Assembly (NCBI RefSeq): GCF_001447785.1
Contig: NW_015160215.1
Coordinates: 1,045,616-1,109,615 of the forward strand
Source: Gekko japonicus
Lineage: Eukaryota
Direction of reading: 5' to 3'
DNA length: 64,000 bases
Shown here: positions 19,373 to 20,751 of the stretch, piece after piece
Numbering within the stretch: the stretch's first letter is position 1
Layout: each line of letters begins with the position of its first letter
Notes under the pieces: generated by a model
Seen by the model: only the letters and a program-made list of their open reading frames with translations
What the model was told of the DNA's origin: nothing
The model's database searches: none
Translations under genes and position numbers: made by a program

Positions 19373-19459
19373 TCAGGGCCGTGCCATCACCCTCGCTGCA
19401 GTCATATGAGTTGTCGCTTCATGCTCCATAGCTCTGGGGTGTACCATGGAGCTAGTTTG

Positions 19460-19716
19460 AACATAAGAACATAAGAACATAAGAGATGCCAATGTTGGAT
19501 CAGGCCAAAGGCCCATCCAGTCCAACACTCTGTATCCCACAGTGGCCAGAAATACCAGTGCCATCAGGAGGTCCACCAGTGGGGCCAGGACATTAGAAGC
19601 CCTCCCACTGTTGACCCCCCCCCCCAAGCACCAAGATGACAGAGCATCACTTGCCCCAGAGTCCCTATCTATACCTTGTGGCTAATAGCCACTGATGGAC
19701 CTCTGCTCCATATGCT
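19460..19716 (-). mobile_element. CR1 3' end with (TTCTTATG)n tail, fused to the PDCD5 retrocopy
   Basis: Reverse complement of the 3' part of the CR1 copy at about 22700-22950. Confidence 0.9.
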
Positions 19717-19854
19717 AAAAAATTTGTTTTCCCTTTCTGTAAAAAAAAAGTGTACAGAAAAACCGTGTAAACATTCCATTTATGGTTCGGTCAGGACAGA
19801 ATACTTTCCTCGACATCTTCCAGATGATTTGCAGTCGGCAACCACCTTTCTATC

Positions 19855-20244
19855 TCAGTCGTCCTCTTCCTCATCGGAATCCAATACTTTTCTTCTGTTG
19901 AACTTTACTGTTGTTTTCTTTTCGGTTTGCTGAGTCACTTTTTCAAGTATTTCTATCAATCCTTGATCTGATACCTTCCCACTTAACTGTCCAAACCTTG
20001 CCATCTGTATGAGATAATTCTCAACTGCTTTCGCCTTTTCCGGCTTTACAAGTGCTAAATTACTTAATCTGGCATGAGCTGCCTGATCCAAAACCTGAGC
20101 CAAGATGTTATTCCTCATTTCCACCTCCCTCTGCTTTGCTTCTTGTTGTACAACTTCACCAGAGGGATCCCTGTGCTTGGCCTGCAGCTCGGCCAACCTC
20201 TGCTTGCGCGGCGCCTCCAGCTCCTCCAGCTCCTCGTCCGCCAT
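19855..20244 (-). pseudogene. PDCD5: PDCD5 processed retrocopy, intronless, ORF still open (129 aa)
   Basis: [77 protein letters not shown]-like flanks out to about 19717 and 20294. Confidence 0.95.
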
Positions 20245-20751
20245 CGTCGCGCCAAGTCCAGGGACCGCGGAGGGGAGCGAGAGAGGCCGCCGAGAGTTTG
20301 GTACAAGAGTGAAGGTCAGTGGGCATGGAGGATGGGGTTACCTCCTTCTGGGGCACATAGAATTGGACTCCCTGGTCCAATCTTTTTTAAACTTAGGAAG
20401 GTTTTTGAGGAGAGGCACCAGCAGCTATGTTGAGAAATTGGTGACTCTACCTAAAAAACCACAGCCCTCAGAGCCCCAAATACCCTCAGATCAATTCTCC
20501 ATTATAGCCTATGGGGCCTATTGACTATAATGGAGCAGGAAAAAATTGATATGTTTTTGCACAACCCTATTGTGTTTTTCAGTATGGTTTGTAAGCTGCC
20601 TTGAGTCACAGATAAAAGTGGGGTATAAATATTTGATAATAAGTATTTTGGGCCGGTTGATAACTTCTGACACCAATTTCTGACAATCATTCCTCTTCTG
20701 TTATACTTGACCTGTAATGCTGGTTCTCATATTTCACTGCAAGAACCCCCC

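Follow-up and report, generated by a model that had tools for sequence, protein, structure and literature searches.

A PDCD5 message on a CR1 3' end in Gekko japonicus, very probably placed by a single CR1-primed insertion

How did a spliced protein-coding message come to stand directly upstream of a CR1 3' end, between two copies of the same hexamer? CR1 recognizes its own RNA, limiting retrocopies (PMC5470649), and it is considered not to make them (PMC5470649; PMC3136929). In the 64-kb stretch of Gekko japonicus DNA that was analyzed (the window), sequence inspection of the minus strand from 20300 to 19454 gives the order CAAACT, leader, PDCD5 open reading frame (ORF), 3' UTR, CR1 3' end, CAAACT. 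An earlier, sequence-only reading had described this order as PDCD5 5' UTR, CDS and 3' UTR, followed with no poly(A) by a CR1 end and its tail. We find it as described, with a CR1 part of 257 bp.

The unit and its two halves

The unit and the elements around it are as follows.

20295..20300, minus strand: 5' copy of the target-site duplication, CAAACT on the minus strand, coinciding with a GC/CpG step at 20290-20297
20245..20294, minus strand: GC-rich leader of 50 nt, putative PDCD5 5' UTR (judged by GC and CpG content)
19855..20244, minus strand: PDCD5 ORF, intact and intronless, 129 aa plus stop (Pfam and protein matches)
20214..20235, minus strand: perfect in-frame 9-bp tandem duplication within the CDS
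19717..19854, minus strand: putative PDCD5 3' UTR, 138 nt
19729..19736, minus strand: 8-nt patch AAAGGGAA, with a second occurrence in the neighboring CR1 at 22683-22690
19460..19716, minus strand: CR1 3' end, 5'-truncated, 257 bp, comprising the last ORF2 codons and the entire 3' UTR
19496..19519, minus strand: hairpin of the CR1 3' tail, predicted by folding
19460..19484, minus strand: octamer tail, TCTTATGT three times plus T
19454..19459, minus strand: 3' copy of the target-site duplication
22478..22951, plus strand: longer copy of the same CR1 subfamily, outside the insertion, used as the reference for the junction
18429..19453, minus strand: decayed host LINE ORF2, 3' of the insertion, with 6 stops in 197 codons
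21145..21491, minus strand: endonuclease end of the same host LINE

The ORF at 20244-19855 matches PF01984 in a Pfam profile search (E = 3.9e-32). The best of 483 protein matches, which are cluster representatives inside which a closer gecko PDCD5 may sit, is PDCD5 of Sphaerodactylus townsendi (88% over 100%), and among 19 named homologues two residues of the copy are common to that protein only. The frame is continuous across 100% of the homologue length, as an intronless copy of a spliced mRNA would be, and the parent gene is presumably multi-exon. As a hint only, a tortoise PDCD5 model (P0108) diverges just after a lysine near the C-terminus, as if an intron had been retained. The 9-bp duplication adds three amino acids to the protein and is absent from all 19 named homologues.

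On either side of the CDS, the flanks resemble untranslated regions. The leader looks like the 5' end of an mRNA, with 76% GC, 8 CpG and a CpG observed/expected ratio of 1.16 versus 0.29 in the whole window, and we take it as the putative 5' UTR. The 3' UTR is AT-rich and has no poly(A); neither AATAAA nor ATTAAA is present anywhere in the unit, and across its whole length there is no run of at least five A outside the CDS. A variant hexamer, CATAAA, does occur at 19784, with CA 28 nt later and a run of nine T (19784-19741, minus strand). Judged by the spacing between hexamer and poly(A) site, the parent transcript may normally end here, in which case the last 34 nt would be read-through; this bears on whether the fusion arose in the parent gene, but variant hexamers such as CATAAA are common by chance.

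The CR1 half was delimited by comparison within the window. By blastn, 19716-19463 aligns to 22698-22951 with 96.85% identity over 254 bp, and the CR1 piece aligns to 38367-38499 with 89.9% identity over 138 columns. The former neighbor lies 3 kb from the unit and reaches 5' to about 22478, where it encodes the ORF2 C-terminus of an endonuclease-reverse transcriptase (EN-RT); this end matches EN+RT proteins of 915-982 aa and a Gekko kuhli protein at 81%. The CR1 piece begins within the last 11 ORF2 codons, its stop ends at 19682, and its last ORF2 codons are identical to those of the neighbor. Because the neighbor runs further 5' into ORF2, the junction with PDCD5 can be set at 19716/19717, barring bases shared with the parent. 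We rejected the neighbor (22478-22951) as the direct source of the CR1 half: it is itself 5'-truncated, and its three private changes in 132 columns are missing from the chimera.

A hairpin and an octamer tail are conserved 3' features of amniote CR1 (PMC4316615). In the unit the tail has period 8 and 3.2 copies at 100%. The hairpin is predicted in all three copies, with z-scores of -0.46 to -1.45, and 14, 29 and 56 of 200 shuffles fold equally well. No protein match of the neighbor's ORF2 carries a CR1 label; we take the 257-bp piece to be CR1 from its tail and from ORF2 motifs of the clade.

The subfamily is dense, with three related 3' ends in 64 kb. One of them, the short 3' end at 38367-38499 (plus strand), sits in another repeat with a weak GDSL-like match at 37834-38235 and has no clean duplication, and a fragment of an older CR1 subfamily with a decayed tail lies at 31578-32110 (plus strand). 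The two copies tested besides that of the unit have no clean adjacent duplication, and the other four TTCTTATG sites on the plus strand were ruled out by inspection as further chimeras.

Insertion site, priming and age

The sequence-only reading had placed AGTTTG, the plus-strand form of the hexamer, on both flanks. It is found there, at 19454-19459 and 20295-20300, and at no other site in 18000-22000. The 3' copy directly adjoins the CR1 tail, and a GC change point, located independently (best 20292; top eight in 20290-20297), is 0-3 nt away from the end of the 5' copy. The base expected after the tail, C, is also the first base of the duplication, which amounts to a 1-nt 3' microhomology. 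Because loosely drawn end zones often share 6-mers (some 6-mer in 0.455 of 5000 shuffles), the hexamer counts through this adjacency and not through its length. The chance of a hexamer abutting both ends is 0.011 (519 of 48,899 random 16-mers pass), rising to 0.04 with 30 nt of slack at the 5' end. A 7-mer, CTCCATG (20330/19451), was rejected as the duplication: its 3' copy is 8 nt off the tail, in host codons that align to LINE proteins.

The host of the insertion is a LINE, which we take to be L2-like; to either side of the unit, its ORF2 has protein matches from anole and wall lizard. On the 5' side about 25 bp of host-like sequence remain (20301-20325) before other nested repeats part it from the endonuclease end at 21145..21491. 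This nested stack, at 20325-21125 inside the host LINE, holds a 62-bp repeat common to 14923, 15685 and 33417, together with 2.8 copies of a 51-bp tandem repeat and, at 20497-20535, a palindrome. A further LINE ORF2 segment at 14086-14886 (minus strand) is collinear with the host, its residues following those at 18424 across an N-run (18032-18273), and may be the 3' part of the same element.

Rfam gave no matches in the 64-kb window. Pfam searches of 35 of the 128 long ORFs gave matches in 6 of the 35, and because these were to mobile-element domains only, no host gene was identified among them. An LTR retrotransposon-like element at about 670-3790 has integrase, Tf2-type SH3 and weak chromodomain matches, and its repeats, from 670 and 3449, are identical at 316 of 329 aligned bases. 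Tandem arrays occur at 25833-26269 (period 155, 2.8 copies), 8252-8842 (period 323, 1.9 copies) and 27465-27532 ((AGAA)17).

If the unit is an insertion, the host repeat without it should carry a single AGTTTG, as the sequence-only reading had proposed. Because no DNA-level second copy of the host LINE was found within the window by blastn, this empty-site comparison was made with proteins. When the unit is excised together with one hexamer, the host LINE comes back into frame, into a conserved APW motif, but by a narrow margin: against 11 named LINE proteins, the restored register is the best of 13 with a summed distance of 65, versus 67 for the runner-up and 77-99 for the others. Per-protein p values for the restored frame are 0.019-0.34 with the hexamer and 0.067-0.53 without it. 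Taken alone, frame restoration would lend weak support to the insertion site, short of proof.

The length of the duplication bears on the priming enzyme. Target-site duplications measure 13-15 bp for L1 and peak at 3-5 bp for L2 and CR1 (PMC4245944), and the 6-bp duplication of the unit fits the short L2/CR1 lengths and not those of L1. The window also supplies a control, an apparently full-length and young L1-type LINE at 45019-51030 (plus strand). This element has an intact 1272-aa EN-RT ORF (46991-50809), AATAAA at 50985, A14 and a perfect 17-bp duplication at 45019/51014, and the PDCD5-CR1 unit differs from it in duplication length and poly(A). Like an L1-made processed pseudogene, the unit is intronless; it has neither the 3' poly(A) nor the 13-15-bp duplication at an A-rich site that mark such copies. 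Priming of the insertion on the CR1 3' end has good support. The L1-independent route that had been suggested for this locus holds to the same extent for priming; it holds less well for the PDCD5 half, where copying by the CR1 RT is something we infer and the window itself contains an L1-type ORF2 that is intact. Separately, about 270 bp of unrelated-looking sequence (46075-46345) interrupts the ORF1 region of the L1-type element, matches nothing elsewhere in the window, and may be an insertion or an assembly patch.

The two halves can also be compared by age. Relative to 19 named homologues, the PDCD5 copy has six replacements at near-invariant columns and two more that are unseen elsewhere, or 6-8 per 308 nonsynonymous sites (1.9-2.6%); codon context marks three of the replacements as CpG-type transitions. 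For the CR1 half, half of the 8 differences that separate it from the neighbor over 254 bp, or 2 private changes in 132 columns, amount to 1.5-1.6% per lineage. Fisher tests of the two divergences give p values of 0.56-1.0, in a comparison with few changes, low power and proteins of other species as the reference. By these measures the halves appear compatible in age, and the host LINE is far older. The replacement rate at near-invariant columns is like that of the CR1 half, which would argue against selection, and the copy looks to be under none. An open frame of 129 codons is expected by chance with a probability of 0.59 at this divergence, and the retrocopy is probably non-functional.

Taken together, these observations support the single insertion event claimed in the sequence-only reading, and support it well. 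Because the CR1 tail abuts a short duplication, poly(A) is lacking, the ages of the halves appear compatible and the L1-type insertion at 45019-51030 differs, we consider the unit to be, very probably, one CR1-primed insertion of a host message with its full ORF.

How the halves were joined

As the best single mechanism we propose a template switch at the moment of insertion, to which we give about half of our belief. The structure of the unit shows one target-primed reverse transcription event by a young gecko CR1 subfamily, in which the CR1 endonuclease nicked the old LINE and the octamer tail of a CR1 RNA primed cDNA with one base of tail-target pairing. Copying of CR1 halted after 257 nt. 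The cDNA end would then have moved to a PDCD5 mRNA, already spliced, at a site 138 nt beyond its stop codon and hence within the 3' UTR, perhaps aided by short patchy homology. With the switch point inside the 3' UTR, no poly(A) would be copied. Synthesis would continue for 578 nt to the apparent mRNA 5' end, joining would leave the 6-bp duplication, and the copy would have drifted by about 2% afterwards, with no sign of selection. In the nick and priming, the copying of 257 nt of CR1 and the single-event status, taken jointly, our confidence is high. Both halves share one orientation, which excludes twin priming (10.1101/2025.02.02.635956).

A trace of homology is present at the junction. The patch AAAGGGAA precedes the junction of the chimera by 12 nt and the corresponding point of the neighboring CR1 by 7 nt, an offset of 5 nt. 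When the 578-nt PDCD5 part is compared with the 30 CR1 nucleotides that lead up to the junction, it is the sole 8-nt match, and it is also the sole one between the 30-mer of the chimera and the 472-nt neighbor. An 8-nt match is reached by random 30-mers in 24 and 70 of 3925 cases and by shuffles in 34 of 4000, giving a post hoc chance of 0.006-0.018. Because of the offset, and because the intervening bases are not CR1, the patch is not a simple crossover microhomology. Found post hoc, it hints at annealing, which also takes place at DNA-level 5' junctions; truncated LINEs often have microhomology there (PMC4245944; PMC2666801). Folding of the junction region is unremarkable (z = -0.54), and a search of 1.84 billion representative proteins with the antisense frame spanning the junction gave one match, unrelated and repetitive (28%).

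The same structure would result if the fusion had come earlier, in the parent gene. A 5'-truncated CR1 may have landed in sense orientation in or just behind the 3' UTR of parental PDCD5, as a fixed or transient allele. The spliced mRNA, tailed in this way with the CR1 hairpin and octamers, would then have been primed on them in trans by the CR1 RT as a SINE is, with any downstream poly(A) ignored and no switch. This course predicts every feature of the unit, including the lack of poly(A) and of a canonical signal upstream, and we regard it as a serious possibility, if on balance a doubtful one. Stringent LINE proteins recognize the cognate 3' tail of LINE or SINE RNA (PMC4176376), and microhomology is frequent at the 5' junctions of truncated LINEs (PMC4245944; PMC2666801). 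Gecko genomes have 103-281 CR1-exon overlaps each (PMC11303007 Table 1), and the subfamily concerned is dense in this window. On the other hand, it requires that, not long before the retrocopy was made, a conserved housekeeping gene had a sense CR1 end within about 140 nt of its stop codon, and in a comparison of low power no greater age is detectable for the CR1 half than for the PDCD5 half.

The missing poly(A) does not favor the switch, because the same structure is predicted by a parent allele whose 3' UTR includes a CR1 end. Its absence is certain if the fusion arose in the parent, and is an extra assumption under a switch: an end-to-end jump to mature mRNA should retain poly(A), and one has to suppose that the switch was internal or that the RNA had been trimmed at its 3' end. 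The locus alone cannot separate a switch during insertion from an earlier fusion in the parent gene. The sequence-only reading had RT starting on CR1 RNA and then switching to PDCD5 mRNA; the start is well supported, and the switch is one of two leading mechanisms, the parental fusion predicting the same structure.

The remaining explanations fare worse. Fusion at the RNA level would mean either that a cleaved PDCD5 mRNA was ligated to a fragment of the CR1 3' end or that the two were trans-spliced, and both RNA ligation and trans-splicing have been proposed for U6/L1 and mRNA/L1 chimeras (10.1101/2025.02.02.635956); alternatively, a PDCD5 cDNA, possibly made by an L1 RT, might have been captured at the 5' end of the CR1 cDNA. 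The junction does fall at AG and the genome has an intact L1-type ORF2, yet the CR1 sequence upstream of the AG is purine-rich and a poor acceptor, the junction lies in a 3' UTR and not at an exon end, and ligation predicts no homology where the 8-nt patch is present. We consider this group improbable. A history of two events, in which an L1-made retrocopy with poly(A) later received a CR1 in its 3' duplication, with loss of the signal, the poly(A) and part of the duplication, strikes us as very unlikely. L1-type machinery has been recently active in this genome, the number of retrocopies in non-mammalian chordates follows that of L1 copies (PMC3136929) and LINE target-site truncations exist (PMC4245944). 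Such a history, however, requires a CR1 insertion within a stretch of about 15 bp and the loss of a sizeable segment besides; no A-rich L1-type start is seen in the 25 nt before the 5' hexamer, no A-run remains and the ages do not differ. A misassembly that placed a PDCD5 retrocopy beside a CR1 from elsewhere is conceivable in a short-read style scaffold with four N-runs and young repeats that mislead assemblers, but scarcely credible given host LINE on both sides, a duplicated hexamer, no gap within 1.1 kb and private changes in the CR1. All these weights are matters of judgement and were not computed.

Known chimeras and the reach of CR1

Whichever way its halves were joined, in the unit a cellular RNA is followed by the 3' end of a truncated LINE, in the same orientation and within one shared duplication. 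Judged from this locus, it would work like a U6/L2-type chimera. RNA-LINE chimeras are established for U6 with L1, L2 and RTE, and those with stringent LINEs include U6-L2 in platypus (n = 40) and U6-L2 and U6-RTE in anole (PMC4476161). As in U6-L2 and U6-RTE (Doucet et al. 2015, PMC4476161), a cellular RNA here lies 5' of a stringent LINE end in the same orientation. Of the 40 platypus cases, 72.5% have duplications of 1-9 bp, and the duplication here is small too; those chimeras were ascribed to template switching (PMC4476161). Unlike those chimeras, the unit has a spliced mRNA with a whole ORF and an apparent full 5' end, and its LINE is CR1; the lone U6-CR1 case in that source, from turkey, was left undecided by a gap (PMC4476161).

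CR1 tails are also known from SINEs. PittSINE and TguSINE1, bird SINEs mobilized by CR1 (Suh et al. 2017, PMC5729268), share with the unit a CR1 tail and a head proposed to stem from a template switch by the CR1 RT, although theirs is a tRNA head in an amplified family and ours is one protein-coding copy. In PMC3747384, CR1-tailed SINEs are recorded only with small-RNA heads.

Spliced mRNAs have been found 5' of a LINE within one duplication in mRNA/LINE-1 5' chimeras (Law and Burns 2025, 10.1101/2025.02.02.635956), for which the mechanism is decided by absence of the LINE from the parent gene, as it would be for the PDCD5-CR1 unit. The 17 human mRNA or lncRNA cases are mostly first exons on near-full-length L1, often joined at splice donors, whereas here the whole CDS and part of the 3' UTR stand on a 257-bp CR1 end. 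With L1-made processed pseudogenes (Casola and Betran 2017, PMC5470649) the unit shares an intronless mRNA copy between direct repeats, and it departs from them in its lack of poly(A), its 6-bp and not 13-15-bp duplication and its CR1 tail. LTR-mediated retrocopies (Tan et al. 2016, PMC5131818) are likewise made without L1 and through template switching, but they have LTR sequence on both sides and no target-primed tail. In our literature search, which covered few subscription papers, no published case came up of a complete protein-coding mRNA joined to a CR1 3' end.

Could CR1 repeatedly give rise to full-ORF retrocopies in geckos independently of L1, by switching or by landing in 3' UTRs, and could such copies form an overlooked class across the genome? 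We raise this tentatively and think it unlikely. If it were true, CR1-tailed retrocopies would have been missed since their tail is masked as a separate repeat, the bar that CR1 stringency sets on retrogenes would be leaky, birds included, and a CR1 landing in a 3' UTR would turn a host mRNA into a protein-coding SINE. Any assembly of a reptile or bird can be scanned for the signature and its occurrences counted: an intronless CDS, no poly(A), a CR1 hairpin with octamers and a duplication under 10 bp. Under either leading mechanism, a switch during insertion or a fusion in the parent gene, the locus is a counter-example in which CR1 primed a whole protein-coding message, and it shows how mRNAs can give rise to CR1-tailed SINE-like elements.
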